Shown: positions 3,887 to 42,389, numbered from the stretch's first letter. The stretch is 44,122 bases of DNA from Crenarchaeota archaeon 13_1_40CM_3_52_10 (GCA_001918765.1 MNGO01000035.1:1-44122), one strand, 5' to 3'. The notes: generated by a model from the letters alone, not told the origin. Translations and numbers: made by a program.

Positions 3887-5512
3887 TCAGGCTTTACCGT
3901 CAACTCTATCCTGCCCTACCCTTTCGCTCGTTCGGCGGCCTGGTGCTCCATAGCCACCGCCACCTGGCGTTATCACAGTCAGAACGTCACCACCATTTGC
4001 ACTAAGAGTTGTCTTCGAAGACAAACCGGTGATCCTGTTTCCTCGCACGATTGCGTATGCGCCTGGCGATCCCGATTTTCCTCTAGACAATCCCCAAGGT
4101 CGGTGGCGTTGTCGCTCGCCCATTAGTGAGATGGTAGATCTTTCAGCCAACACCTCTGTGTCTCTCCTGATGCCTAGTCCTCCTCGGAACTTTCCTCGTC
4201 CACCGGAGCCTCGTACCAGCTCGTACTTCTTGACCCTCAGGGGATATGCTGATTCCAGTGCTTCTATGGGGGTGTTCAATGTATTCGTCATGTGACTATG
4301 AATTCCGTCAACACCATCTTTGCTGTAACGCGCACCGAATCCGCCGGCGATGGTCTCATAGTAGGTGAAGTATTTCCCGGTCCGCGGGTCAATTCCTCCG
4401 ATGGTTACGTTGTTCATTGTTCCTTGACAAGCAGCACATACTCTCTCTGGAATGATACTAGAGAAGGCCTTGAGGGTCACGTCAACAATTCGCGTCGACG
4501 TTTCCACGTTTCCACCTGCCACTGGCGCAGGCGGCTCCGCGTTGACAATGGTCCCGGATGGTGCTGTAACCTGTATGGGTTTGAAGCAGCCCGCGTTTGC
4601 TGGAATCGAGGGATCCGTCACACATCTTACCACGTAGTAGACGGCTGAGAGAGTGACGCTGTAAACGGCGTTCAAGGGTCCCTGAACCTGTTTCGCAGAA
4701 CCGGAAAACTCGAACGCTATGGATTGTTGATTAATTGTGACCTTGACCCTGACCGGGATATCGGTCGCACCAAAACCATCGTCGTCGAGATAGTCAACCG
4801 CTGATGATGACTTCCTCGGCAGTTCACGAATCTTCTTGAGCATCAGCTCCTCGGAGTAGTCGATCAATTGATCCATCCCACTCTCAACTGTTGAAGCTCT
4901 CGATTTCTTCAGTAACTCTCCCAAACGTTTCGCGCCGACAAGATTCGCGGCCCGTTGCGCTCTGAGGTCTCCCAGTCTCTCATCAGGGGTCCGGACATTG
5001 GACAGTACAAAGTCCAGGATTTGCCGGTTCGGTTTGCCCCCCGTCCAGATCTTGATAGGAGTAATACGGATTCCTTCCTGATTAACGTCTCTCGATAGCG
5101 CGGACATGCTCCCTGGCGCGACGCCTCCGACATCAGAGTGGTGAGCGCGGTTAGCCGCAAACCCAACCAACTTTTCCTTGAAGAACATCGGAGAGACCAT
5201 GGTAATGTCGGGGAGATGTGTCCCACCCCGGTATGGATCGTTGATGATGATGTCGTCACCTTCAGCTAGATCATCTTTGAACTCTTTCTGAACCGCCTGC
5301 ACTGAGTGTGGCATAGCGCCGAGATGGACTGGAATGTGCTCTGCTTGAGCGACTAGCTGTCCCGACTTGTTGAAGAGAGCGCAGGAGTAATCTCGCCTCT
5401 CCTTGATGTTGGGAGAGAAGCTCGATTTTCGGAGAACCACTCCCATATCTTCCGCAATGGAGATGAGTGAGTTCTTGAGAATCTCGAATGATATTGGGTC
5501 AAGATTCTCCAT
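3887..5512 (-). CDS. hyuB: Hydantoinase B / oxoprolinase family protein
   Basis: The ORF is 541 aa. It has the typical N-terminus DPISFEILKNSLISIAEDMG, and length and composition match HyuB/OplB-type subunits. Confidence 0.9.
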   Translation of the reverse strand: MENLDPISFEILKNSLISIAEDMGVVLRKSSFSPNIKERRDYSCALFNKSGQLVAQAEHIPVHLGAMPHSVQAVQKEFKDDLAEGDDIIINDPYRGGTHLPDITMVSPMFFKEKLVGFAANRAHHSDVGGVAPGSMSALSRDVNQEGIRITPIKIWTGGKPNRQILDFVLSNVRTPDERLGDLRAQRAANLVGAKRLGELLKKSRASTVESGMDQLIDYSEELMLKKIRELPRKSSSAVDYLDDDGFGATDIPVRVKVTINQQSIAFEFSGSAKQVQGPLNAVYSVTLSAVYYVVRCVTDPSIPANAGCFKPIQVTAPSGTIVNAEPPAPVAGGNVETSTRIVDVTLKAFSSIIPERVCAACQGTMNNVTIGGIDPRTGKYFTYYETIAGGFGARYSKDGVDGIHSHMTNTLNTPIEALESAYPLRVKKYELVRGSGGRGKFRGGLGIRRDTEVLAERSTISLMGERQRHRPWGLSRGKSGSPGAYAIVRGNRITGLSSKTTLSANGGDVLTVITPGGGGYGAPGRRTSERVGQDRVDGKA

Positions 5513-5552
5513 TGCGAGCCCTGATTCCCGGGTTCTGCCTCGTTGAGCTTAT

Positions 5553-6986
5553 ATGGAGGCATTGCTTTTTGAGCGGGTAACTTTGCCCGCTCCAAGAACC
5601 CTTGCAGTGCTGACCCTATTCATTGTTCTATCATCCCCAGCATTCACGCTTCCTGGCCATCACACTCCGCCTACTAGTCAGCCTACCGTACGATTGGCTC
5701 CTTCTTCCCTTTCATCGGCGATAAGTTCAGCGCTTGTATGGTTGGCTCATAACCAGTCTGTCGATGGCTCGTATGGAGCGTTCCAGGAGCACTTGGCCGC
5801 GGCCGCAGCTTATGCTCTCTGGCTCAACAGTTCGGACTCTCCAAAAGCAGCTCAATCCTACACATGGTTAGCTCATCAACTGAACAGTTCTCAAACATGG
5901 TTCTGGGGACAGTACGGAGAGGCTGATGTTCCGGGATCAGTACTGTTCAGTCTAGCTCTGAGCTCGAACCTGCGTCTCGTCAACACAACGATCGTTGCTA
6001 GCAATCTTCTACAGTTACAGAAGGCCGACAGTGGATTTGAGGGATACTACGATGGCTCCCAGACCGTTGCTAGCAGTGTCGACACGGACACAGCTCTCTT
6101 GGGACTCATCAATTCGAGAACGATTTCTGTTTCGAGTCAAACCAATGCGATCAACTTTGTTCTCTCGCTTCAGAATCCAAACGGTAGCTTCAATCTGACG
6201 AGTAGCAAACCGTTCGATCCATTCTATTCACTTGGGCCGGATTCAATTAGCATTACTGCATTGACGCTTCTCGTCTTGAAGAGCGCAGGGTTTGTGCATG
6301 ACAGTCCAAGTGTTTCGAGCGCTCTGAGCTTTCTGAATGCAGCGGCCTCTTCGGACTTTGGCGGACATGTATACGCTGCAGCCCTCTCCGCGCTAGCACT
6401 CAAGGCCTTCAACAAACCTGCTAACATAGTTACGGCAGTTACATACATCCTTTCTCAACAGAACGGCGATGGAGGGTTTAGCGATAGTAGTCGTTCTTCG
6501 CCTTCTAAATCGAATGCGCTTGATACAGGATTGGTTGCCGTGGCTCTCGAAGAAAATCCAGTCCTATCTGTAAACAGTCCTCCGACGGCCGCTCTCGTCT
6601 ATGATCCTGCTTCACCAAACGTGGGGGTAACGGTTCATTTCGACGCGAGTTCATCGCACGACTCCGATGGTGATCAGCTCTCGTATCTGTGGACCTTTGG
6701 TGACGGTTCTTCAGCTACAGGCTCGACCCCAAGTCACACTTATTCTCAGCCAGGCAATTTTAGCATCACCCTAACCGCGACGGATTCAGGCACGAACCCA
6801 GCGGCTCTATCTAATACCAAATCGCAAACCGTGACAGTGCAACCTGCGAATGTTCAGAATAACTCCAGGCTACCGTTCAGTGGCGTGGGACGGCTAATCG
6901 CCTTGGGGATCGTCGCGCTAGTCCTAGTCGTCGGAGCCGCCGTCTATCTGGTCCTGAAAAGGGCTAGAAGACCGGCGATGCGCTAG
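5553..6986 (+). CDS. Secreted/surface protein: prenyltransferase/terpene-cyclase-like alpha/alpha-toroid repeats + PKD domain + C-terminal TM anchor
   Basis: The ORF is 477 aa with a signal-like N-terminus (RTLAVLTLFIVLSSPAFTLPG). It has repeated 'Q.(S/P)DG(S/G)(Y/F)' helical-hairpin repeats (HNQSVDGSYG, LQKADSGFEG, LQNPNGSFN, QQNGDGGFS). The PKD domain is VHFDASSSHDSDGDQLSYLWTFGDGSSATGSTPSHTYSQPGNFSITLTATD. The C-terminal anchor is LIALGIVALVLVVGAAVYLVLKRARR. Confidence 0.75.
   Translation: MEALLFERVTLPAPRTLAVLTLFIVLSSPAFTLPGHHTPPTSQPTVRLAPSSLSSAISSALVWLAHNQSVDGSYGAFQEHLAAAAAYALWLNSSDSPKAAQSYTWLAHQLNSSQTWFWGQYGEADVPGSVLFSLALSSNLRLVNTTIVASNLLQLQKADSGFEGYYDGSQTVASSVDTDTALLGLINSRTISVSSQTNAINFVLSLQNPNGSFNLTSSKPFDPFYSLGPDSISITALTLLVLKSAGFVHDSPSVSSALSFLNAAASSDFGGHVYAAALSALALKAFNKPANIVTAVTYILSQQNGDGGFSDSSRSSPSKSNALDTGLVAVALEENPVLSVNSPPTAALVYDPASPNVGVTVHFDASSSHDSDGDQLSYLWTFGDGSSATGSTPSHTYSQPGNFSITLTATDSGTNPAALSNTKSQTVTVQPANVQNNSRLPFSGVGRLIALGIVALVLVVGAAVYLVLKRARRPAMR
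5573..5591. promoter_or_regulatory. 19-nt dyad motif GCGGGTAACTTTGCCCGCT, copy 2
   Basis: It is identical to 2729-2747. It lies 18 nt after a TATAT (5550-5554), inside codons 7-13 if ATG 5553 is the real start, or 16 nt upstream of the alternative in-frame GTG 5607. Confidence 0.5.
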
Positions 6987-10202: not shown

Positions 10203-11354
10203 ATGACAATCCACGTTCTCCTGACAGCAGACAACCACCTAGATCCATCCGCAGTCCAGTACGGTCCCAAGCGGTTCGAACGCAAGCGCGACTTCCAGCG
10301 TTGCTTCGAAATTCTAGTCAACTTTGCCTTGGAGAATAAGCCCGAAATTCTTCTAATCGGCGGAGATTTCTACGATGGCATTCTGCCCGGCAACCCCACC
10401 AGGGCGTTTGTAGCAGAACAATTCAAGCGTCTACACGAGAAGAACATCAAAACCATTCTTGTAAGCGGCCACCACGATACCCCACGCAGCGCAGAGCAAG
10501 GCGCATCACCCCTCGCCGTTCACGCAAGGTCCGGACATGTATACTTCATACAAGAACAACATCCAACGAACAAGAAGTTCAATTTCGGAAGCGAAACCGT
10601 CAACGTGACAGGGATGAGCCTCAACCCATCCCTACCCGTCGAAGCAGATCCACTCGTCGGTCACGAGATCAAGCAAGACGGAGACGTCAACATTTTCCTG
10701 ACACATTATCCGATCGAACGCTTCGACGGCTACTTTGGACAAGAAGTCCACATCCAGAAATCATCCATCCCCAGGAACCTCCAACTCTTCGCCTCAGGCC
10801 ACCTGCACAATCATCAAAGAAAAACCATCAACGGGACACCAGTCATCTATCCCGGAAGCACCGAGCGAGCTTCGTTCAACGAAGAAGGCGAGACGAAAGG
10901 GTTCGTATGGCTCGAACTGGACAAGTCCGGAATAGTCCAGCAAGAGTTCCATCCAACGCCCGCTCGGCCCATGGAAACCCTTGAGTTCCGAGTGGCTGGT
11001 GAGGGAAGCCTCACACGACAAATAGAGGAAGCCTTGGAGAAGAGAATAGACGACGAGAAGATACTTCGCGTAAAAGTCTCCGGAAAAGTCACACTGAATC
11101 AGCTCTCTACCTACAAGCGATCCGCAATCTACACCTACGCAGAGGACAAGTTCTTCCACATTGAATTCGATGAAGAACAGCTCAACGTTCTTACGATGGT
11201 CCCGTTGGAGTCGCTTCCGAAGACTACTCCGCTCCAGGAGCTAGACCGGACATTCCAGAACCTGCTAACAAAAGCAGGCGACCAGGATAGACCGCTTGTT
11301 CAAGAAGCCTGGAAGCTCACAATTGCAAAGCTTCAGGAGGAGGGAGTCGACTGA
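10203..11354 (+). CDS. mre11: Mre11/SbcD-type metallophosphoesterase nuclease
   Basis: The ORF is 383 aa. Phosphoesterase motifs appear in the Mre11 order: ADNH (I), GGDFYD (II), SGHHD (III, atypical), FLTHYP (IV), SGHLH (V), IYPGS. Its stop TGA overlaps the start region of the downstream rad50-like gene. Confidence 0.85.
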   Translation: MTIHVLLTADNHLDPSAVQYGPKRFERKRDFQRCFEILVNFALENKPEILLIGGDFYDGILPGNPTRAFVAEQFKRLHEKNIKTILVSGHHDTPRSAEQGASPLAVHARSGHVYFIQEQHPTNKKFNFGSETVNVTGMSLNPSLPVEADPLVGHEIKQDGDVNIFLTHYPIERFDGYFGQEVHIQKSSIPRNLQLFASGHLHNHQRKTINGTPVIYPGSTERASFNEEGETKGFVWLELDKSGIVQQEFHPTPARPMETLEFRVAGEGSLTRQIEEALEKRIDDEKILRVKVSGKVTLNQLSTYKRSAIYTYAEDKFFHIEFDEEQLNVLTMVPLESLPKTTPLQELDRTFQNLLTKAGDQDRPLVQEAWKLTIAKLQEEGVD

Positions 11355-13717
11355 AACTACTAAGTCTCTATGCTCACAATTTCAAGAAACTGAAATTCTC
11401 CCAACCACTACCCTTCACGGAGGGCATCTCGCTAATCACAGGATTGAACGAGAGCGGAAAATCCACCATCCTCGACGCGATCCTCTTCGCCCTCTTCGGC
11501 CGCATGATACGGCCCAGCCAGAAACCTAGCAACGAAGAAATCCTCACCTACGGAACCGGCGAAGCCCAGGTAAAACTCGAATTCGCCATCGGCGACCTCA
11601 AGTACCGAATCGTAAGAGAGATTCACAAGACCAGACCAAACCGCGCACAGCTCTATGAGCTTGGGCCGAACGGTCGACAAAAGACAATCGCAACAACCGT
11701 AAACGACACAACAAGCGAAGTCGAACGGCTCCTAGGAGGCATTACCTACAACGAAATTGTCGCAAGTAGCGTCGTCGCACAGAAAGATCTGGAACGACTA
11801 ATCAAACAAAGACTCGACGACCGAAGAAAAGTTGTCAACGTGTTCCTGAACCTGGACAGTTTCAACAGAGTGCAGGACCAGTTTGATACGGAGAGAGCCA
11901 GAATCGAAGGCACAACCCGGAATCCGGGACAGCTAACAGTTGAACGCGAGCGGCTCCAATCGCTTCAAGAACAAATGAAAAGGTACAAGGAAGCCGAGAC
12001 CCAACTCTCAACCCTGGCACAAAAAATCGAGAAGCTCAGGCTCGAACTAGTGGACATGGAGAAAAAGTTCGCGGCCACAGATTCTCTCCACAGGACCCTT
12101 AACAAGTACGATGAAGCAGTGAAACTCCAAAAATCTCTTCAGCAAGAGATTCAGGACAAGACGCGTCTTGCAGAGAACCTCCAACGACAACTATCCGGGA
12201 TTTCATCCCAACGAGAAGAACTGGAGAAAGCCCAATTGGAACTCGAACAGTTCTCTGGACTTTCCGAAATAGAATCCCAACTCGCCCAGGCATCGAATAT
12301 GCTTGAGGAATTTCAATACGCCGAAATCCGCAGAATCCAGTTGGAGGAATCCAAGAATAATCTATGTGCTAAAATTGCACAGAAGACAAAAGACGTCTCG
12401 GGTCTTGGAAATCCGAAACCGTTGGACTCCAAGCCAAGAAGGGTCTGGACATATCTCATTTCAACCTCAGCTCTAGGCGCCGGAGCCATTCTATCCTTCT
12501 TCCTCGGTCTCCCACAAGTCGCAGTTGCGTTCGGCTCCCTGGCTATAGTCTCCCTCCTCTTACTGACACGACAGATTGTCTCGCTTTCGCAACAAGCTAG
12601 CAGCTCGAGATACGAGCAGGAACAGTTAGCCAGCCTGCAGCTCGTCCGCTCATGGGAGAATGAGCTGGCGGAGAACCAACAAAACCTGACCAAAATCCAG
12701 CAGGACCTTGCTGAAAGGTCCGAGAGTCTTCTGGGAACACTGAGTTCAATCACACGATACTCAGCCACGGTCGGAGCGGCAAACGACCCTAAGACTGCTT
12801 TCGAGACCATATCTTCATTGTTCGACAACGACAAGCAAACACATCAGTCTCTCGAAGAGAAGGTCAGATTACTAGGCCAACAACTGAGAGAGGAACCCCA
12901 AATCAAAGAACGCCTCGACCTTATCCAAGGCGAAATCAAACAGGTCGAAAAGAAATTCAGCACGGCTCAGTCGCCGGATCTCCCAGCAGGTCTATCCTTC
13001 TCCGAGACGCTTCTTGAAGAGACCGCCGAAGTCAGAGATACGCTAAAGGAATCCGTTTCGAGAAATAGGGCACAGATCGAAGACTCGATTTCCCGACAGC
13101 TCGAACTACGCCAGCTACTAGAGGAGAACAGCAGTCTTGATGATCAAGTTCAGACCCAAATGAAGAAAGTGATGCTCCTAGAGAAGGACTGCGCGGTCGT
13201 CAAGCTGTCTGTCAAAGGATTGGAGCAAACATCGGAGTCCTTACGTAATCGTGTCAAGCCCCAGGTCGAACGCTACATGGGGCTCATCCTTCCCGTAATA
13301 ACTTCCGGAAGATACAAGGCCGTGCAACTCGACGAAGACTACACTGTCAGAGTCTTTGATCCAGAGGCTGGAGAGTTCAAGTCCAAGGAAGTTTTCTCGG
13401 GAGGTACAGAAGACCAGGTCTTACTGGCAATGAGGCTGGCCTTCGCTCTTGCCTTGATACCTCAAGCCAAAGGCCATAATCCCGAATTCCTATTCCTCGA
13501 CGAGCCTCTCGGCAGCTCGGACAGAGTTCGTCGAGAAGGAATTCTCACACTACTCCACCAAGAACTGTCACAGAATTTCAAACAAATCTTCCTCATTAGC
13601 CACGTAGGAGATCTTGAAGCGGAGGCGGACACCATAATACAGATGGACAACGGTATGGTTCGCGAGGTCATTGGAAGAAAATCTCAACCACGACAGCCAG
13701 TCGAGGTTGCCGCGTGA
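11351..13717 (+). CDS. rad50: Rad50/SbcC-type SMC-like ABC ATPase with a mid-protein transmembrane hairpin instead of a zinc hook
   Basis: Motifs are Walker A GLNESGKST, signature FSGGTEDQ, Walker B FLFLDEPLGSSD and H-loop FLISHV. Long heptad-rich arms are present. The conserved N-terminus xKLLSLYAHNFKKL starts at CTG 11351. The track start, TTG 11444, lies inside the P-loop strand and cannot be the true start. Confidence 0.8.
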   Translation: MKLLSLYAHNFKKLKFSQPLPFTEGISLITGLNESGKSTILDAILFALFGRMIRPSQKPSNEEILTYGTGEAQVKLEFAIGDLKYRIVREIHKTRPNRAQLYELGPNGRQKTIATTVNDTTSEVERLLGGITYNEIVASSVVAQKDLERLIKQRLDDRRKVVNVFLNLDSFNRVQDQFDTERARIEGTTRNPGQLTVERERLQSLQEQMKRYKEAETQLSTLAQKIEKLRLELVDMEKKFAATDSLHRTLNKYDEAVKLQKSLQQEIQDKTRLAENLQRQLSGISSQREELEKAQLELEQFSGLSEIESQLAQASNMLEEFQYAEIRRIQLEESKNNLCAKIAQKTKDVSGLGNPKPLDSKPRRVWTYLISTSALGAGAILSFFLGLPQVAVAFGSLAIVSLLLLTRQIVSLSQQASSSRYEQEQLASLQLVRSWENELAENQQNLTKIQQDLAERSESLLGTLSSITRYSATVGAANDPKTAFETISSLFDNDKQTHQSLEEKVRLLGQQLREEPQIKERLDLIQGEIKQVEKKFSTAQSPDLPAGLSFSETLLEETAEVRDTLKESVSRNRAQIEDSISRQLELRQLLEENSSLDDQVQTQMKKVMLLEKDCAVVKLSVKGLEQTSESLRNRVKPQVERYMGLILPVITSGRYKAVQLDEDYTVRVFDPEAGEFKSKEVFSGGTEDQVLLAMRLAFALALIPQAKGHNPEFLFLDEPLGSSDRVRREGILTLLHQELSQNFKQIFLISHVGDLEAEADTIIQMDNGMVREVIGRKSQPRQPVEVAA
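12443..12580 (+). other. Predicted two-helix transmembrane hairpin at the Rad50 coiled-coil apex
   Basis: The sequence is KPRR-VWTYLISTSALGAGAILSFFLGL-PQ-VAVAFGSLAIVSLLLLT-RQ. This covers residues ~365-410 of ~788, the midpoint of the protein. The protein has only two isolated Cys and no CxxC. Confidence 0.65.
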
Positions 13718-13738
13718 GACTTTCTCAGGTCGTTTTTG

Positions 13739-14125
13739 CTAGCAAATATACGCTTGAACTATAGGCGCCTGCAAGGCCTTCAAAGCAAGTAAGAGAGTTT
13801 GTTCAGCAGTAGTTCTTACATCGCCGATTTCTGAGAGGAGGGTCGTCCAAAGCATGTAGATGCTACCTTCATTCTCGGTCGCCTGAAAGAATCCCAAACT
13901 TTCGAGGGACGATGTTATTTGGTGGAAGCGGTCTGATCTTGACGAAAGACCAACGGTAATCGTCCAGTCGCCTAGCTTGTCAAGGTTGACCCCTACAATT
14001 GCATCAGAGAAAGCAATCGAAAGGCTAGAACCGCGCTTCAATGAAGCATCAACCATTGTTGCCACTGATCTTGGATCTACCAAACCGGGATCGAGTCTGG
14101 ACTGGGGCCTCTGGTTTTCTGTCAT
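13739..14125 (-). CDS. Hypothetical protein
   Basis: The ORF is 128 aa with ATG start and TAG stop, convergent with rad50. No motif was recognised. Confidence 0.4.
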   Translation of the reverse strand: MTENQRPQSRLDPGLVDPRSVATMVDASLKRGSSLSIAFSDAIVGVNLDKLGDWTITVGLSSRSDRFHQITSSLESLGFFQATENEGSIYMLWTTLLSEIGDVRTTAEQTLLLALKALQAPIVQAYIC

Positions 14126-14211
14126 AGGCTCAGCCCACCATCGATATCGGGCTTAACAATCGTGTTACTTAGCAGGCTGCCGCAAGGGAAATCGCTTGGG
14201 TTTCTCGGGTG

Positions 14212-14218
14212 TTTATAT
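14212..14218 (+). promoter_or_regulatory. TATA-like box upstream of dph2
   Basis: TTTATAT lies about 43 nt upstream of ATG 14261 in an otherwise GC-balanced spacer. Confidence 0.3.
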
Positions 14219-14260
14219 CGGGCTCTACCCTTTTGGTAGCTTCTCGCCGGCGAATTTGAC

Positions 14261-15268
14261 ATGTCCATGTTTGACCTTGACGAGGATAAGCTCCTAGCTG
14301 AGATAACGGGGAGAGGTGCACGAAGGATACTGATCCAGCTACCCGATGGTCTCAAGAACGAGGGGACCCGGCTTGCAAGTCTCGTCCGAGGGAAGACGGG
14401 CGCGGACGTGTTTGTCTCCGCTGTGCCTGCCTGGGGAGCCTGCGACTTGTCTTTGGATGCCGCTAACCGCCTGAAAGCTGACCTGCTAGTCCATTACGGG
14501 CATAACGAATTCCTGCGAGACAGTTCCAATGGAGTCCCGGTCGTATATGTCCCTGCAAAGAGCAATCACGAGGTCATTCCTGTCGTAGAGAAGGCGGTTT
14601 CCGCCCTTCAAGGCAGGAACATTGGACTAGCCACCACAGTTCAGCATTTGCACAAGTTTCCTGAGGCGATAAAACTTCTAGAGGCGAGAGGGTTCAGTGT
14701 TCTTGTTCCAGGGCGCGGTCCATGGTCACACGAGACAGGTCAGGTCCTTGGTTGTGACTATTTTGGACTCAAGAGGATTCAATCTCAGGTCGACTCATTT
14801 CTGATCCTAGGCAGCTACTTCCACGGTCTCGGTGCAGCTCTTTCTGTAGAAAAACCGACAATTCTCGCAGACCCCTACGACGGAACAGTCAAAGTTCTAG
14901 ATCAGGATAGGGACCGGATTATTAGGCAGAGATATGCAATGGTGGACAAAGCTAAGAGAGCCAGCAATTTCGGAATAATCGTCTCAACTAAGCCAGGACA
15001 GAGCAACCCACAAATTGCTCTCTCAATTCTCAAGCAGATCGAGGAAGCAGGCAAGAAAGCGGTCATCCTCTACGCGGATGAGATTGTACCGCAGAAACTG
15101 CTCGACTTCACCGACATCGATGTCTTTGTCGATACTGCTTGTCCCCGCCTTGCGCTAGACGATCCGGAAAGATTTCCAAAGCCAATCATCACAAGGGACG
15201 AGATCATGGTTGCCATCGGTGCTTGGACCTGGGAGCAGCTTTTGGAGCGCGGACTGGTCCGCCTATAA
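14261..15268 (+). CDS. dph2: Diphthamide biosynthesis radical-SAM enzyme Dph2 (2-(3-amino-3-carboxypropyl)histidine synthase)
   Basis: The ORF is 335 aa. Motifs are RRILIQLPDGLK, WGACD, LVHYGH and DTACPRLALDD, which include the three-Cys cluster ligands typical of archaeal Dph2. Confidence 0.85.
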   Translation: MSMFDLDEDKLLAEITGRGARRILIQLPDGLKNEGTRLASLVRGKTGADVFVSAVPAWGACDLSLDAANRLKADLLVHYGHNEFLRDSSNGVPVVYVPAKSNHEVIPVVEKAVSALQGRNIGLATTVQHLHKFPEAIKLLEARGFSVLVPGRGPWSHETGQVLGCDYFGLKRIQSQVDSFLILGSYFHGLGAALSVEKPTILADPYDGTVKVLDQDRDRIIRQRYAMVDKAKRASNFGIIVSTKPGQSNPQIALSILKQIEEAGKKAVILYADEIVPQKLLDFTDIDVFVDTACPRLALDDPERFPKPIITRDEIMVAIGAWTWEQLLERGLVRL

Positions 15269-28056: not shown

Positions 28057-28785
28057 CTGATCGACAGGAAGATTCGCGGAGTAGTCTTCGATCTAGATAA
28101 CACTCTCATCCAGTCCAAGAAGGGCGCTCAAAAGGGTCTCCTCGCAGTCGCGAGCATTTTTGCGAAACGGTTGAGCGTAGAAGGATACCACTACACTGAG
28201 GCAAACCTGTTCAGAAGACTCCAGATGATCGATCTGGAAATGCATGGCCGAAAATTTCTCTACAATAGAGATGTCTGGTGGGAGACCCTGCTCAAAGAGC
28301 TCGGCTCATCTAAGCTCAAGGGTCCATGGGTTCACCAGACAACCCTCCGTTATTGGAAGACGTACGCTCAAGCGAGTCCAATGTTCTCTGACGCGATGTC
28401 GACCATTCGTCGAATGAAGAAGGAAGGATTTAGGCTTGGAATGGTTTCCGACTCAGATGGAACTCCTGGAATGAAAATGAAGAGAATTCGTAAACAGCCA
28501 TTTCTGAAGTATCTTGAGACAATAGTTGTTGCCGGCGAGGACACGCCTAGTGTGAAACCAAGCAGGAGACCCTTCACCCTGGTCGCAGAGCGGTTAAGAT
28601 TACAACCCAGGGATTGCGTCTACATTGGCGACAATCCAGACACAGACATTAAGGGAGCGAAGGGGGTTGGCATGATGATGATACTGGTGAAACGTCGAGG
28701 TCCAAAGGGTGGACATCCAGACTACCGGGCTCGATCGTTGAGTGATGCTGCTAGGCTGTTAACGGGGAACCAACCTGTTCCATAA
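28057..28785 (+). CDS. HAD-superfamily hydrolase
   Basis: HAD motif I VVFDLDNTL (28081-28107) lies upstream of the track start TTG 28171. The frame opens right after the TGA of the upstream gene, and CTG 28057 gives a normal N-terminus (xIDRKIRGVVFDLDNTL). Motif II is GMVSDSDG and motif III is YIGDNPDTDIKGA. Confidence 0.8.
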   Translation: MIDRKIRGVVFDLDNTLIQSKKGAQKGLLAVASIFAKRLSVEGYHYTEANLFRRLQMIDLEMHGRKFLYNRDVWWETLLKELGSSKLKGPWVHQTTLRYWKTYAQASPMFSDAMSTIRRMKKEGFRLGMVSDSDGTPGMKMKRIRKQPFLKYLETIVVAGEDTPSVKPSRRPFTLVAERLRLQPRDCVYIGDNPDTDIKGAKGVGMMMILVKRRGPKGGHPDYRARSLSDAARLLTGNQPVP

Positions 28786-29617
28786 CAGACTGTTTTCGGA
28801 AAACGATTCTTTCCGATTCGTGGCCCATCCGTTCCTGAATAATTCCCGAAAAGTCTTGTAGCTTCTCATATCCGATGAATCGACGGCTAAGATCCATTGC
28901 TGCCTTGAGAGTGGTTCCAGATCCGAGAAAAGGGTCCAGGACCAGATCATCTTCTATGGAGAACATTCGGATCAGTCGTCGTGGGATCTCTTCTGGGAAT
29001 GCGGCGACTCGTCTTTCTAATTTTCCGTGGGTTTGTCTTGTTCCTTTGACGCTCCAGACTTGTGAGAACCATTCGTCCCGTTCGTTCTTGGTAAACTTGC
29101 TCCCGTAGCGTTTCGGATCCTTTGGCTCGAAGGTTCTCAGACTTCCCTTGCGAAAAATCAAGATGTACTCCATGTCCAAGGTTACGTACGCGTTAGGGGG
29201 GAGGAAACCTGAGCCTAGAAATGCTCCCTTCCCTTTGTAGCGAGGTTTCGTGGTAGGCTTCTTCCAGAGGATATAGGGGAGGGTAACGAGGCCGAGGTGT
29301 TCGAAGGTCTCTATCACTCGTGAATGGTTCGGGTATAGATGGAACATACCATCCTTGGTCCGGGTCGCGTCGCCAATATTGATACAGGCGAGTCCGCCGG
29401 GGGCCAAGACCCTTTTCACTTCTTTCCACGTTTGGCTAAGGTAGCTGTGCATCTCGTCGTAGGACTCTGCGGATTCTTCTCGGAAGAAATCGTCCCATAT
29501 ACCAACCATTGGGTAAGGTGGCGAGGTGACGACCAGATTCACGGAGTTATTGGCTAGTTCTTGCATCTTACGGCTGTCGCCGATGATTACGCGGTAATCG
29601 GCCGTCGTCTCAGTCAA
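28751..29617 (-). CDS. Beta-class (N6_N4 family) DNA methyltransferase with SPPY motif
   Basis: The ORF is 288 aa. Motif IV VVTSPPYPM lies N-terminal to motif I DPFLGSGTTLKAA, which is the beta-class order. It starts 7 nt after the PAC2 gene stop. Its 3' end overlaps the convergent HAD gene by 35 nt. Confidence 0.85.
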   Translation of the reverse strand: MTETTADYRVIIGDSRKMQELANNSVNLVVTSPPYPMVGIWDDFFREESAESYDEMHSYLSQTWKEVKRVLAPGGLACINIGDATRTKDGMFHLYPNHSRVIETFEHLGLVTLPYILWKKPTTKPRYKGKGAFLGSGFLPPNAYVTLDMEYILIFRKGSLRTFEPKDPKRYGSKFTKNERDEWFSQVWSVKGTRQTHGKLERRVAAFPEEIPRRLIRMFSIEDDLVLDPFLGSGTTLKAAMDLSRRFIGYEKLQDFSGIIQERMGHESERIVFRKQSVMEQVGSPLTA

Positions 29618-38977: not shown

Positions 38978-40492
38978 CTAGGCTAGGGCGTCGTTGTATA
39001 ATGCGTCGAGTACCGAGTAGGCTTCCTCGGGAGTCGAGGGGTTCGCTGGCAGAATATCCTCTGCTATGGACCGTTCAAGTATCTGGCGTATGCAATACCG
39101 GAGCTTAGTTGGGGTCAAACTGGCTTCCACGTTCCACATGGGATGGTCCATGTTGACAAAGACGGTTCGAACCCCGTTCTTATCAGTCTCAACATATGCC
39201 TGACCACGATCTCCACCGTGAGCGATATCGAAGGCTAACACCTGGTCCTTTAGATGTATGACGCTGCGGGTAGCGTCTCTAGAATGTGTCTTCGACTTCC
39301 GGTCTTTCCTGTGTCCAGACCCGTTCTCCTTCTTCGGCACATAGTTCGATGCATGACTAACTTTTGACGGTGCTTTCGCTTTGATCATTGCTTTCGAGAT
39401 GATCTCGATGTTTCGTCGGAGACTACGCCGTAGCCTCTCTGCAATCTCGCGATTGAGATATTGTATGCTGCGGAGTTCTCTGCGGCTGGCGGTCTGTCTG
39501 AGGAACTTGTAGACCCTATTCCGAACAAACCCGCGCATGGCCTTCTCGAACACTCTCCACTGCGCACTATCTCTCTCGAACTCGTTACCACCCGGCAATC
39601 GTCGGAGGAAGTCTGCGTTAACCCAGCCCTGTATACGGCTAAGCCCATGAATACGATACTGATCCAAGCCGAAGAACTGGTGTTGCAGACATGTGATGTG
39701 TTTCTGTTGGACACTCATACCAGCCTCAGATATTCCGGCACGTGTCTTCGAAATGGGAAGGATCAAGACTTCGCCAGTAATCTTCCCGTATTCTGTGGCA
39801 ATATTGACGGGGAGGAGGGTTGCGCCGCGGAGTTCTTCAGGCTTCACCGTCTCACCATTGACGAGGACTTCGAATGGCCCGTATCCCCGCAGGGCAAGGA
39901 CGTTCGCTCTCGCCAAAAGTGCTCTGCGGACTTCTCCGGAGTCAGTTTTCTTCGTCAACGATCGGATCCTGATTCTCAGACCATCATGGTCCAGCGGTGC
40001 CTGGATTACACGTAGGGGCCTCCATGTGGACTGGTCGGTCGGGGCCCAGTGACGATCGATAAGGCTCTCTGTCAACATGATCGTCCGATCGAAACGCCCT
40101 TTGTGAACCTGGAGCTCCAGCTCGCGACCTAGAGTTAGCCAGGCGAGACTGCCCATACCATATGATTCGCGGATCGGGCGTTTGTATTTTGGCGAGAAAC
40201 CTTCGCCGGTTGTTTTTCCTTTGGTGAGAAATTCGCGTAGACCGTCGAGGTCCATTCCGTGGCCCCATTCCTCGTATTCGATCTGAGAGCCTGAGTCGGC
40301 AACCTTGATTTCGACCCTTGTTGCTTCGCCCCACATCCACGAGTTGACAACAAGCTCGACGAAAAACTGCGCCGCATCCGTATACTGTCGTCCAAGGGTC
40401 TTAATGATGCTCTTGTGAGTAGAGACCTGCAGGTCTTCGTCGACTATCGAGTGTACTGCTCTCGCTGAATGCACTGATCGTCTTGATGCCAA
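38978..40492 (-). CDS. Divergent GHKL (Bergerat-fold, HATPase_c_3/MORC-like) ATPase with an uncharacterised C-terminal region
   Basis: The ORF is 504 aa with a TTG start. The N-box is FVELVVNSWMWGEA, G1 is EEWGHGMD (Glu where the canonical Asp sits) and G2 is ESYGMGSLAWLTLG. It continues with an R-rich helix, a K/S/R-rich linker and a C-terminal helical domain. Confidence 0.65.
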   Translation of the reverse strand: MASRRSVHSARAVHSIVDEDLQVSTHKSIIKTLGRQYTDAAQFFVELVVNSWMWGEATRVEIKVADSGSQIEYEEWGHGMDLDGLREFLTKGKTTGEGFSPKYKRPIRESYGMGSLAWLTLGRELELQVHKGRFDRTIMLTESLIDRHWAPTDQSTWRPLRVIQAPLDHDGLRIRIRSLTKKTDSGEVRRALLARANVLALRGYGPFEVLVNGETVKPEELRGATLLPVNIATEYGKITGEVLILPISKTRAGISEAGMSVQQKHITCLQHQFFGLDQYRIHGLSRIQGWVNADFLRRLPGGNEFERDSAQWRVFEKAMRGFVRNRVYKFLRQTASRRELRSIQYLNREIAERLRRSLRRNIEIISKAMIKAKAPSKVSHASNYVPKKENGSGHRKDRKSKTHSRDATRSVIHLKDQVLAFDIAHGGDRGQAYVETDKNGVRTVFVNMDHPMWNVEASLTPTKLRYCIRQILERSIAEDILPANPSTPEEAYSVLDALYNDALA

Positions 40493-40586
40493 GGGTCTTG
40501 GTCTTTGTCGTATGGAAAGTCGGCCGGATAATGGACTAGTGTAACCGGTCTCAAGAAAGAATGGGAAATAATCGAGCTACTTCTAG

Positions 40587-41228
40587 CTAGCGCGACCCGG
40601 CTTTCCTAGTAACTTCTTTCGCAGGCTCCGGGGTATCTGGGAAAAGGTCCTTCGGCATTCCGGATAGAACATCAGACAGCGAATCTCGACCCATTTGTCC
40701 CTGGCCGCCGGTCTGGAAGGGTCGAACCCTGTTGAACAAATCGTCGATCTTGTTTGCCATCTTCATCTTCTCGTTTATCCTCCCATCAAGCTCTTGACCG
40801 TCCGCTTCCAGTTGTTGCACTCTAGGCGCGAGTCCTTCTATTCCCTTTGAAACTTCAAGCATTCCGTTGACCGTGGCGAGTGACGATCTCAAACTGGTAA
40901 TTTCTTTCTGCATCGCTTCTCGGTAACTGCGGAGCCTTTCGAGAATAGGTTGGTAGAGGCGGAGGAAGTCGACCATAAGACTCTCGAACTGACGAATAGC
41001 GAGGGTGAATTTTTCTTCTCGCTTCTTCTCGGCAAACTGTTTCGCTGTACCTAAAAGCTTCTCGCGGAGAGCAACCCTCTCAATAACATCATCCAATACT
41101 TCTCGTACATTGTACGACTCATCAAACACTGTCTCACGCATTGACCGTCGATGTTCCTCACAAAGAGCCTGAGCATTAAGAGACACGTCACTCGCGATCG
41201 CGAAATACAGTAGCACTCGTCTGCTCAA
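40587..41228 (-). CDS. Hypothetical coiled-coil protein
   Basis: The ORF is 213 aa with a TTG start, almost entirely helical and heptad-rich (LRSYREAMQKEITSLRSSLATVNGMLEV..., QQLEADGQELDGRINEKMKMANKIDDL). The C-terminus is G/Q-rich and looks disordered. Confidence 0.5.
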   Translation of the reverse strand: MSRRVLLYFAIASDVSLNAQALCEEHRRSMRETVFDESYNVREVLDDVIERVALREKLLGTAKQFAEKKREEKFTLAIRQFESLMVDFLRLYQPILERLRSYREAMQKEITSLRSSLATVNGMLEVSKGIEGLAPRVQQLEADGQELDGRINEKMKMANKIDDLFNRVRPFQTGGQGQMGRDSLSDVLSGMPKDLFPDTPEPAKEVTRKAGSR

Positions 41229-41318
41229 TAGGTCACGTACTGCTCAATGCTTCCTTTAATGATCATACCCAGCATCCGTGCTGACAAAAAGAAGGTCAAG
41301 GAGATGAACCCGCATCAG

Positions 41319-42389
41319 TCAGCCTGAGTCATTCATCCACTCTAGCCATTCTCCGTGTGAGTGGCACCTCGCCAAGATTTTCTCTGTCTTGACGCCATCG
41401 CTGAATTCCGCGAGACCTACGAGAGGAGTTTCTGAGTCCGTGGCCCACTCCAACCAGACGAGGAACAGGTCTCTCTTCTTGGATCCTTTTGTTAGGAGTG
41501 CGTGTAGGTTCTCCCGTGGTTTCCCGCCCGCGAGGGTCAGGGTGAAAGAGTGGTAGATGCATAATGGTGCTTTCTCGGGGACTTTATCGATGAGGCTTGA
41601 TAGAAGCTCCAGGGCATTTCCAGTGATGATTCTCGGAGGAGCTTGCTTGACAAACTGGATGGCATGTTCCAGTTGTCTAGCTCGTTTCTGGTTGTCAGGC
41701 CAAACGAGAGCGCGCAACCATTGCACGTTCTCGGCGTTGTTGACGTCGATGGGTGAAAGGTCGATGCCTGTACGAGAGGCGACCTTCGGCAATTGCCCCG
41801 GTATCGGGGGACGCATTTCTCCGCGCAGGGAGCACTCGATCTTTACCGGTGAGTTTGGATCTCCACACTCTAGGCCGTTTCCGTACCGGTAGTGGTAGTG
41901 GTCCCAGAGCAAGGTCAGTCCTGCGCTGGAACCAATCTCAAACATGGCCATCGGCTGACGTTTCGTTTGGGCCGTTACGAGTTCAAAGGCCGGGACGAGC
42001 ACAGCGCAGCGTCCCACTTCGTTCGTCTGGACAGAATGAGTCATCATGATCTGGCGAATCTCTTCCCGGTGCTCAAGGACGAAGCTGCGGAAGTAGGGGT
42101 AGACGTAGTCGTAGTGCCGGGAGGAGTTGTTGAGACTGGGGTAGAAGGCTGCGAGCTGATGGTGCTCGCCTTTGAGCAGCAACAGATGTACGGCGGCAAA
42201 GAACAGGTTGGGGAGAGCAGCTTTCTCTTGAGCGCTGGCTGCTAAGCTGACGAGTTCAGGGTCCTCTGCAACTCTGAGAGCGAGATTCGTGTAGAGCGGT
42301 GACCGATCGGCGTAGATCTTGCCAGCAAAGTAGCGGAACCGCTCAGCGGTCTTGTCCAGAAGTAAAAGTGAGCCTGTTGACTCGCTCAT
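41319..42389 (-). CDS. DUF2332-like protein (probable SAM-methyltransferase-like fold)
   Basis: The ORF is 356 aa. The N-terminal pattern RFRYFAGKIYADRSPLYTNLALRVAEDPELVSL...PNLFFAAVHLLLLKG and the EIGSSAGLTLLWD segment match my recollection of DUF2332. Confidence 0.65.
   Translation of the reverse strand: MSESTGSLLLLDKTAERFRYFAGKIYADRSPLYTNLALRVAEDPELVSLAASAQEKAALPNLFFAAVHLLLLKGEHHQLAAFYPSLNNSSRHYDYVYPYFRSFVLEHREEIRQIMMTHSVQTNEVGRCAVLVPAFELVTAQTKRQPMAMFEIGSSAGLTLLWDHYHYRYGNGLECGDPNSPVKIECSLRGEMRPPIPGQLPKVASRTGIDLSPIDVNNAENVQWLRALVWPDNQKRARQLEHAIQFVKQAPPRIITGNALELLSSLIDKVPEKAPLCIYHSFTLTLAGGKPRENLHALLTKGSKKRDLFLVWLEWATDSETPLVGLAEFSDGVKTEKILARCHSHGEWLEWMNDSG

Follow-up and report, generated by a model that had tools for sequence, protein, structure and literature searches.

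The window analysed here is a 44,122-nt stretch of DNA from Crenarchaeota archaeon 13_1_40CM_3_52_10 (GCA_001918765.1, MNGO01000035.1:1-44122). Two overlapping genes at positions 10203-13717 encode a Mre11/SbcD-like nuclease and a Rad50/SbcC-like ATPase. On balance we think that this locus specifies a genuine Mre11-Rad50 end-processing complex, in which the apex of the Rad50 coiled coil is a membrane-embedded helical hairpin of about 42 residues replacing the CxxC zinc hook. The hook is regarded as a defining and essential feature of Rad50/SbcC proteins. The hairpin variant is widespread in archaea and in several bacterial phyla, and has apparently passed undescribed in the searchable literature. 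The two genes, and the segments forming the arms and the apex of the ATPase, are the following.

10203..11354, plus strand: Mre11/SbcD-like nuclease gene, 383 aa, calcineurin-type phosphoesterase (Pfam, NCBIfam, motif conservation)
11351..13717, plus strand: Rad50/SbcC-like ABC (ATP-binding cassette) ATPase gene, 788 codons and stop, directly 3' of the Mre11-like gene
11930..12400, plus strand: predicted ascending coiled-coil arm (residues 194-350; AlphaFold helices 194-299 and 304-350)
12401..12442, plus strand: predicted non-helical linker (residues 351-364), ending in basic KPRR (12431-12442)
12431-12574, plus strand: KPRR-VWTYLISTSALGAGAILSFFLGLPQVAVAFGSLAIVSLLLLT-RQ (residues 361-408), read directly
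12443..12502, plus strand: predicted hydrophobic helix 1 (residues 365-384, VWTYLISTSALGAGAILSFF), from hydropathy and AlphaFold
12503..12517, plus strand: predicted turn LGLPQ (residues 385-389; AlphaFold helix break at 385-387)
12518..12568, plus strand: predicted hydrophobic helix 2 (residues 390-406, VAVAFGSLAIVSLLLLT), followed by RQ and running unbroken into the descending arm
12575..13300, plus strand: predicted descending coiled-coil arm (residues 409-650), with breaks at about 466, 477-479, 514, 539-551 and 593-595 (AlphaFold)

Residues 365-406 of the ATPase, 42 in all, make up its longest run free of D, E, K and R, and lie at the midpoint of the protein. The only region exceeding 1.6 on the Kyte-Doolittle (KD) scale spans residues 365-412, with a 19-aa maximum of 2.16, in a protein whose mean is -0.47 (standard deviation 0.78). 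By sequence rules, the region comprises two apolar helices of about 20 residues, a short turn and positive flanks; both helices are rich in Gly, Ala and Ser. Since basic residues are found on both sides, both ends of the hairpin should face the cytoplasm. Composition, length, basic flanks and the predicted helix-turn-helix support a membrane hairpin with both arms plausibly cytoplasmic. A preliminary description of the window had pointed to a hydrophobic hairpin at the midpoint, flanked by basic residues, and its strings and coordinates are correct. It had also set the apex in the membrane, and arms and heads in the cytoplasm: the features of sequence and model fit this arrangement, in which insertion is a prediction.

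The head carries the catalytic motifs listed below.

11441..11467, plus strand: Walker A (P-loop) GLNESGKST, residues 31-39, from alignment A1
11771-11788, plus strand: Q-loop VVAQKD (Q144)
13394..13606, plus strand: whole span of the motifs of the C-terminal ATPase lobe
13394-13408, plus strand: signature FSGGT, residues 682-686
13487-13507, plus strand: Walker B FLFLDEP, residues 713-719
13511-13522, plus strand: D-loop GSSD
13592-13606, plus strand: H-loop LISHV, residues 748-752 (H751)

In alignment A1, which includes 37 divergent members of the Rad50-like family, the residues of Walker A, Q-loop, signature, Walker B, D-loop and H-loop are all invariant (G31, N33, E34, G36, K37, S38, Q144, S683, G684, D717, E718 and H751). 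The protein matches AAA_23, SMC_N and SbcC_Walker_B in Pfam. Its best NCBIfam matches are archaeal Rad50 models, headed by PRK03918 (115.1 bits vs a cut-off of 700), and SbcC gives 72.8 bits vs 478.5; no dedicated NCBIfam model was found for the hairpin-type family when eight relatives were scanned. Cysteines occur only at positions 339 and 614, and CxxC is absent from the whole sequence. A hinge domain, as in SMC proteins proper, was not found with Pfam. Lacking CxxC and falling short of the curated cut-offs, the protein is classed with Rad50/SbcC as a variant devoid of the hook, and is not counted as canonical. Several earlier claims hold up at this point. All SMC/Rad50 head motifs are in place, each string at the position given for it; the two cysteines are isolated, with no CxxC; and Pfam, NCBIfam and Foldseek agree on a Mre11/Rad50-type pair. 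The comparison by profile hidden Markov models that had been called for returned Rad50 and SbcC models below their cut-offs, and Pfam AAA_27 at 21.2 bits vs 22.

AlphaFold2, run with the 37-sequence alignment, gave a model with a mean predicted local distance difference test score (pLDDT) of 83.7. The model has a two-lobed head, helices 194-299 and 304-350, a basic linker of low confidence (351-364), a helix at 365-384, a three-residue turn, and a helix at 388-465 leading straight into the descending arm. Apart from the C-terminal tail, the linker is the block of lowest pLDDT (about 53). The arms, described earlier as of roughly equal length, are unequal: about 157 residues are predicted to ascend and about 240 to descend, the latter with breaks. 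In Foldseek the best PDB match is C. thermophilum Rad50 (7zr1_D, E 1.4e-22), and the top Rad50 matches range from E 1e-22 to 1e-11. The Rad50 heads of M. jannaschii, T. maritima and P. furiosus are matched with a TM-score of 0.7-0.8; Smc5/6, MukB and condensin form a second tier. At the level of secondary structure and Foldseek, the protein combines a Rad50-type head fold with a long coiled coil set between N and C lobes.

The architecture is not peculiar to this genome. The preliminary description called for a survey of relatives, and this revealed a large family in which the hairpin is conserved. Proteins of 84-92% identity bear names that place the window in a soil archaeon of the Bathyarchaeia type, and copies 92% identical occur in VBBP01, VBBQ01 and VBBR01. 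The hydrophobic segment is retained in 120/120 best homologues (61-92% identity, independent assemblies), none of which (0/120) carries CxxC, and many of which have no cysteine at all. Close homologues share the motif R-R-V/I-W-T-Y-L-x-S/A-T-A-A-L-G-A-G-A-I/V-L-S-F ... G-S-L-A-V-x-S-L-L-L-L-x-R-Q, and the sequence of the turn is conserved only inside this close clade. An exhaustive HMMER search over 1.84 billion cluster representatives (50% identity) returned about 309 clusters at E<1e-30. In the best 150 clusters (25-61% identity, 580-1390 aa) nearly every full-length protein has a hydrophobic stretch of 40-50 residues close to the midpoint, and no hook. Measured over 136 of these, the longest run without charge is 38 aa in the median, with its centre at relative position 0.49 and a mean KD of about 2.0. 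Family-wide, the 10-residue flanks of the hairpin have net charges of +2.0 and +1.6, the arms of -0.36. In relatives with an uncharged run of about 20-27 aa, a charged residue divides the hydrophobic segment, which fits two helices. Length and hydrophobicity of the stretch are conserved, its sequence is not. Together with the basic flanks, this is a pattern typical of lipid-facing helices with both ends in the cytoplasm, to judge from sequence. Retention of the hairpin in all 120 close and nearly all distant homologues rules out chance, an assembly chimera or a lost hook. Among the close relatives, P0105, 61% identical to the window ATPase, is named 'Candidatus Angelobacter sp.' (Acidobacteriota), and probably stems from a mis-binned archaeal contig.

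Hairpin and hook are mutually exclusive, and almost never occur together. When 300 full-length relatives were sorted, scoring the hairpin by a strict 30-aa rule, the outcome was as follows.

261/300: mid-protein hairpin only
24/300: mid-protein CPxC only
1/300: hairpin and hook both, the latter an off-centre CRNC, probably there by chance
14/300: failing the strict 30-aa rule, mostly with a shorter or split segment

The hydrophobic segment is wholly absent only in two of the 14 proteins failing the rule (P0245 and P0262). The two apex types occupy the same place, the hairpin at relative position 0.49, the CPxC hook at 0.49-0.50. Matches from Priestia and Pontibacillus, retrieved in the plasmid search, are NurA-HerA-Mre11-Rad50 operons with CPVC/CPIC hooks, and were used as controls. 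In these hook-type operons of Bacillaceae, CPIC is found at 406/825 and CPVC at 403/803, and no long uncharged run is present. In a crude neighbour-joining tree of the heads, indicative only, hook-type proteins form one clade and hairpin-type proteins the remainder.

The family alignment, used to scan GTDB species genomes, picked up 78 loci. Among archaea they belong to Bathyarchaeia, Nitrososphaeria/Thaumarchaeota, Thermofilaceae, Thor- and Promethearchaeota and Brockarchaeota, among bacteria to Dictyoglomota, Chloroflexota, Nitrospira, Krumholzibacteria and Armatimonadota. A NurA-HerA-Mre11-Rad50 operon ends in the hairpin-type gene at 23 or more of these loci (L001, L017, L019, L021, L022, L027, L029-L031, L033, L035, L038, L039, L041, L042, L046, L050-L052, L054, L056, L067 and L080), as well as in Thermofilum and Promethearchaeota contigs. 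Operons of this type come from Thermofilum, Promethearchaeota, Thorarchaeota, Brockarchaeota, Nitrososphaerota, Bathyarchaeia, Dictyoglomota, Krumholzibacteria and some Chloroflexota. The location of the Rad50-like gene alongside HerA helicase and NurA nuclease in many relatives suggests that its ancestral job was to resect DNA ends for recombination. The clade of the window, which holds the pair only, is nested in a larger archaeal clade when the heads are compared by neighbour joining, and every deeper branch of that larger clade is of the operon type. In the simplest history, the pair parted from herA-nurA in the window lineage. The earlier inference that the machine acts elsewhere 'rather than in classical end resection' is weakened, since many relatives are the Rad50 of such operons and the window clade is nested among them.

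Bathyarchaeia provide the closest comparison of the two apex types. Among the NurA-HerA-Mre11 operons retrieved there with one HerA query (HerA 53-57% identical), L147, L148 and L151 end in a hook-type gene (CPTC), L019, L029 and L152 in a hairpin-type gene. A further locus (L149) is apparently hairpin-type, its contig ending as the hydrophobic stretch starts. The occurrence of both apex types in one slot of related operons suggests that they do the same job. For the window lineage, the HerA search and context look-ups gave matches only in other Bathyarchaeia metagenome-assembled genomes (MAGs), with both operon types. Hairpin-type relatives were absent from the viral contigs of IMG/VR, where only hook-type (CPTC) relatives were found, and plasmid matches are weak or hook-type; a viral or mobile origin is rejected on these grounds. 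Two apparent paralogues in one Thermofilaceae MAG (L030 and L037) turned out to be the same gene, 98% identical.

Some of these loci deserve a remark of their own. Nearly identical hairpin-type operons, with proteins of about 918 aa, occur in L042, binned as Bathyarchaeia, and L054, binned as Krumholzibacteriaceae; the whole 'Bathyarchaeia' clade of about 920 aa groups with bacterial sequences in the neighbour-joining tree, which indicates horizontal transfer or mis-binning. In Promethearchaeota (L004/L047, 15100-18354), a further NurA-HerA (725 aa) pair, with an HNH gene behind it, sits 4 kb downstream of the hairpin-type operon, and Csa3-like and SMODS-like genes are found upstream. The Thermofilum locus L001 carries a second SMC-like gene of 612 aa (12510-14348, minus strand; SMC_N, AAA_15, AAA_23), 2 kb from the operon. 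The hook-type Bathyarchaeota operon of L147/L148 sits between a PLD/NgoFVII-like nuclease gene and a BrxL gene (4477-5586 and 14276 onward), a setting of the defence type.

The partner gene encodes a protein matching Pfam Metallophos (E 3.6e-11). In NCBIfam it scores 76.7 bits with Mre11_Sulfo and 67 bits with SbcD, both under cut-off, and its top family matches are archaeal Mre11 and bacterial SbcD. The gene, with its phosphoesterase motifs intact, adjoins the ATPase gene and overlaps its start. The five motifs are kept across 47 partner proteins from related loci, and are located in the window as follows.

10224-10244, plus strand: motif I, TADNHLD
10359-10376, plus strand: motif II, GGDFYD
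10464-10478, plus strand: motif III, SGHHD
10695-10712, plus strand: motif IV, FLTHYP
10794-10814, plus strand: motif V, SGHLHNH

Motif III (10464-10478) reads GHHD, the usual form being GNHD. Among the 47 partners the second residue is H in 21, mostly from the archaeal clade of the window, and N in 18.

The start of the Rad50-like gene is unusual. The reading frame is open from 11291 to the stop at 13715-13717. Codon 11351 is CTG, overlapping the mre11 stop as cTGA, and a further in-frame CTG is found at 11309. The first in-frame ATG, GTG or TTG is the TTG at 11444, within Walker A, and a start there would leave out the initial beta-strands of the protein, together with the opening glycine of the P-loop. 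One further feature belongs here.

11336..11344, plus strand: Shine-Dalgarno-like GGAGGAGGG, 6 nt upstream of the proposed start CTG 11351

The codon matching 11351 is TTG in L012, L016 and L062, and CTG in ten further close relatives. In distant relatives ATG, TTG or GTG is found at the equivalent position or one codon before, overlapping the mre11 stop (ATGgTAA, TTGgTGA, GTGA), and a GGAGG-type site is kept at the Shine-Dalgarno position in most of the aligned relatives. To judge from these sequences, initiation likely takes place at 11351, on CTG or through termination-reinitiation. The length of 788 aa assigned earlier is thus right as to the frame, which is intact over 788 codons, and demands a non-canonical CTG start. 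Because of the CTG codon, public gene models of the window clade are often too short (736, 756 or 757 aa), missing the strands at the N-terminus and some of the P-loop.

Neither HerA nor NurA was found in the 44-kb window, as had been noted before. The neighbours are housekeeping genes, with no defence gene among them, encoding hydantoinase A/B, diphthamide synthase, a methyltransferase, an MMPL transporter, a nitrilase and PEP (phosphoenolpyruvate) synthase. The neighbourhood is syntenic in at least 8 relatives, which points to a stable chromosomal locus; beyond the close clade, no conserved neighbour other than mre11 was found. Two other regions of the window may be mentioned, a gene for a N6/N4 DNA methylase without an obvious restriction partner (28751-29617, minus strand), and a group at 38978-42389 (minus strand) made of a 503-aa protein with a weak GHKL-ATPase match, a coiled-coil open reading frame (ORF) and a DUF2332 protein.

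How such a complex would work can be outlined from the model and by analogy. An M2R2 head, made of two Rad50-like protomers and a Mre11-like dimer, would bind and cut DNA ends in an ATP-dependent manner. Each protomer is predicted to fold back via its own coiled coil. The point of return would consist of two hydrophobic helices joined by a turn of 3-5 residues, set into the cytoplasmic membrane so that both ends stay inside the cell. Two such hairpins, one from each protomer, would probably pack in the bilayer, and in this way replace the zinc hook as the constitutive dimeriser of the apex; an engineered swap of hook for hinge suggests that apex modules can be exchanged (PMC6969161). The tether may serve dimerisation only, or may bring the complex to DNA at the envelope. 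At 0.148 nm for each of about 157 helical residues, the nuclease/ATPase head would be held about 23 nm from the membrane. DNA ends processed by the head may be passed to HerA-NurA where present; in the window lineage the pair would have parted from herA-nurA, which may sit elsewhere or have been lost.

Several points weigh against this reading. Insertion of the hairpin in the membrane is predicted from hydropathy rules and by analogy. Simple sums on the Hessa scale are marginal for the window helices, +1.0 and +2.2 kcal/mol, and for this reason the family-level signal is relied upon; relatives are far more hydrophobic, with KD maxima of 2.5-3.4. Because the turn has no polar residue in many relatives, a hairpin that is re-entrant or monotopic is no less possible than one that crosses the membrane twice. 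Dimerisation via the hairpins is a probable step that we infer. The NCBIfam cut-offs for Rad50 equivalogs are missed widely (115 bits vs 700), so that orthology with canonical Rad50 is drawn from the position in the operon and not from score. The Rad50-like gene has no canonical start codon. In the window herA and nurA are unlinked to the pair, and the same genome may also carry a hook-type Rad50.

Four other explanations have been weighed. The preliminary description preferred to see the same membrane-anchored complex as specialised for DNA at the envelope, viral, conjugative, transforming or trapped at division, and not for general break repair. This is unlikely. In its favour, free ends entering at the membrane are the natural Mre11-Rad50 substrate, and the linkage to herA-nurA has been lost in the window clade. 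In Bacillus subtilis, the SbcC-like/SbcD-like pair SbcE/SbcF, with a hydrophobic central domain and no CxxC, gathers in polar foci when cells are competent and has a part in transformation (PMC2811018). The Ted loci, which serve DNA import in Pyrobaculum and Vulcanisaeta, contain herA-like genes and rad50, possibly of the hairpin type (PMC9905601). Against such specialisation, SbcE mutants are also sensitive to double-strand breaks (PMC2811018); no gene for uptake, conjugation, defence or division is a conserved neighbour, mre11 being the only one (with herA-nurA in relatives); PADLOC finds nothing in the neighbours; and hairpin- and hook-type genes share the slot of related Bathyarchaeia operons, suggesting the same job. 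Alternatively, the hydrophobic segment might be soluble, and form a buried four-helix bundle dimerising two apices, a proteinaceous substitute of the hook. We hold this to be improbable. Apex modules seem interchangeable as constitutive dimerisers, the zinc hook being reported to be exchangeable with an SMC hinge (PMC6969161); the small residues of the window helices (GAGA, GS) favour helix packing, and the Hessa-scale sums are slightly positive. Yet the family shows 40-50 uncharged residues with a mean KD of about 2.0, conserved only as hydrophobicity, with both flanks enriched in basic residues and no evident amphipathic pattern. Four such helices would leave a large apolar surface exposed, and the central domain of SbcE is wholly insoluble on its own (PMC2811018).

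A module for anti-plasmid or anti-phage defence of the SMC type, Lamassu-like and unrelated to repair, is very improbable. The best PADLOC match is indeed the LmuB model (91.7 bits, E 1.5e-26), but it spans generic SMC/Rad50 heads, and neither a LmuA-type effector nor a kleisin is found nearby, the Mre11-like protein and the flanking ORFs having no PADLOC match. The locus is stable and syntenic, the surrounding genes have housekeeping roles, and relatives reside in NurA-HerA operons; none of the hairpin type occurs in viral contigs, and plasmid matches are weak. An artefact, whether from an assembly chimera, from a frameshift that made the gene a pseudogene or from a sequencing error that erased the hook, has practically no standing. 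It could appeal to the lack of a canonical start codon 5' of Walker A, but the CTG/TTG codon after GGAGGAGGG is itself conserved, the 788-codon frame is intact, and the hairpin recurs in over 250 independent sequences, which come from many studies.

A broader and more tentative proposal may be put forward, to which we give somewhat less than an even chance. The NurA-HerA-Mre11-Rad50 machine could be integral to the membrane in many archaea (Thermofilaceae, Bathyarchaeia, Nitrososphaerota, Brockarchaeota and Asgard lineages) and in several bacterial phyla, the hairpin dimerising the arms and fixing end processing to the envelope. Were this true, the zinc hook would not be universal, and break repair, or the destruction or uptake of entering linear DNA, would be organised at the membrane. 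The FtsK-related HerA helicase would also gain a long-hypothesised link to the membrane. Iyer et al. in 2004 are said to have put forward such a link. Whatever the fate of the proposal, a broad set of proteins occupies the Rad50 slot of the canonical repair operon and bears a membrane-type hairpin. Should the hairpin be inserted in the membrane, the apex module of Rad50 would be exchangeable in natural evolution, beyond engineered swaps; DNA-end processing would be tethered to the envelope, which bears on the way archaea arrange recombination, the import of DNA and their defence against foreign DNA in linear form; and the insoluble 'unique central domain' of B. subtilis SbcE would find a possible explanation. 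The idea is directly testable, because cultured carriers such as Dictyoglomus turgidum exist.

Neither a membrane-anchored Rad50 nor a hairpin-type Rad50 in NurA-HerA operons was found described in the full-text literature searched, and earlier mention elsewhere is possible; the initial remark that no archaeal system of this architecture had been characterised agrees with the search, which returned no describing paper. Likeness to canonical Rad50/SbcC is extensive. It includes an ABC head with all catalytic motifs, folded as in Rad50, a long coiled coil that turns back on itself, a Mre11/SbcD-type gene that lies upstream and overlaps and, in many relatives, the fourth position of NurA-HerA-Mre11-Rad50 operons. 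The differences are the lack of CxxC, with an uncharged helical hairpin of 40-50 residues as the predicted apex, a P-loop reading G-x-NESGKST and not GPNGAGKS/T, shorter arms (about 160-240 residues) and, for the window copy, no linkage to herA-nurA. The design of head, antiparallel coiled coil and apex dimeriser is shared with SMC proteins proper and MukB, but a hinge domain is missing and the partner is a Mre11-type nuclease, not a kleisin. A generic Rad50/SMC-like head is in turn common to Lamassu LmuB and other defence SMC-like ATPases; unlike in Lamassu, there is no LmuA effector or defence island, and the operon is shared with Mre11, in some cases joined by HerA-NurA.

The closest characterised analogue is B. 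subtilis SbcE (YhaN). Sequence kinship is suggested only by matches to Pfam AAA_27, which we take to be the family of YhaN-type heads: the window protein falls just short of the cut-off, and the relatives P0141, P0200, P0122, P0152 and P0171 pass it with 24-36 bits. UniProt presumably annotates YhaN with two transmembrane helices. SbcE is a SbcC-like protein of about 106 kDa without CxxC, in which a hydrophobic 'unique central domain', insoluble alone, separates the heptad regions, and the gene of the SbcD-like SbcF (YhaO) adjoins its own; both proteins play roles in double-strand-break repair and transformation, and form polar foci in competent cells (PMC2811018). The same report does not call the central domain transmembrane. 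The existence of this partly characterised bacterial protein, together with the large family described above, further removes the architecture from the status of a peculiarity of one genome. The window system is archaeal, unlike SbcE, and the conserved central proline of SbcE is not family-wide here. The pair shares these described features of SbcE: the lack of CxxC, a hydrophobic centre between heptads, and an adjacent SbcD-like gene.

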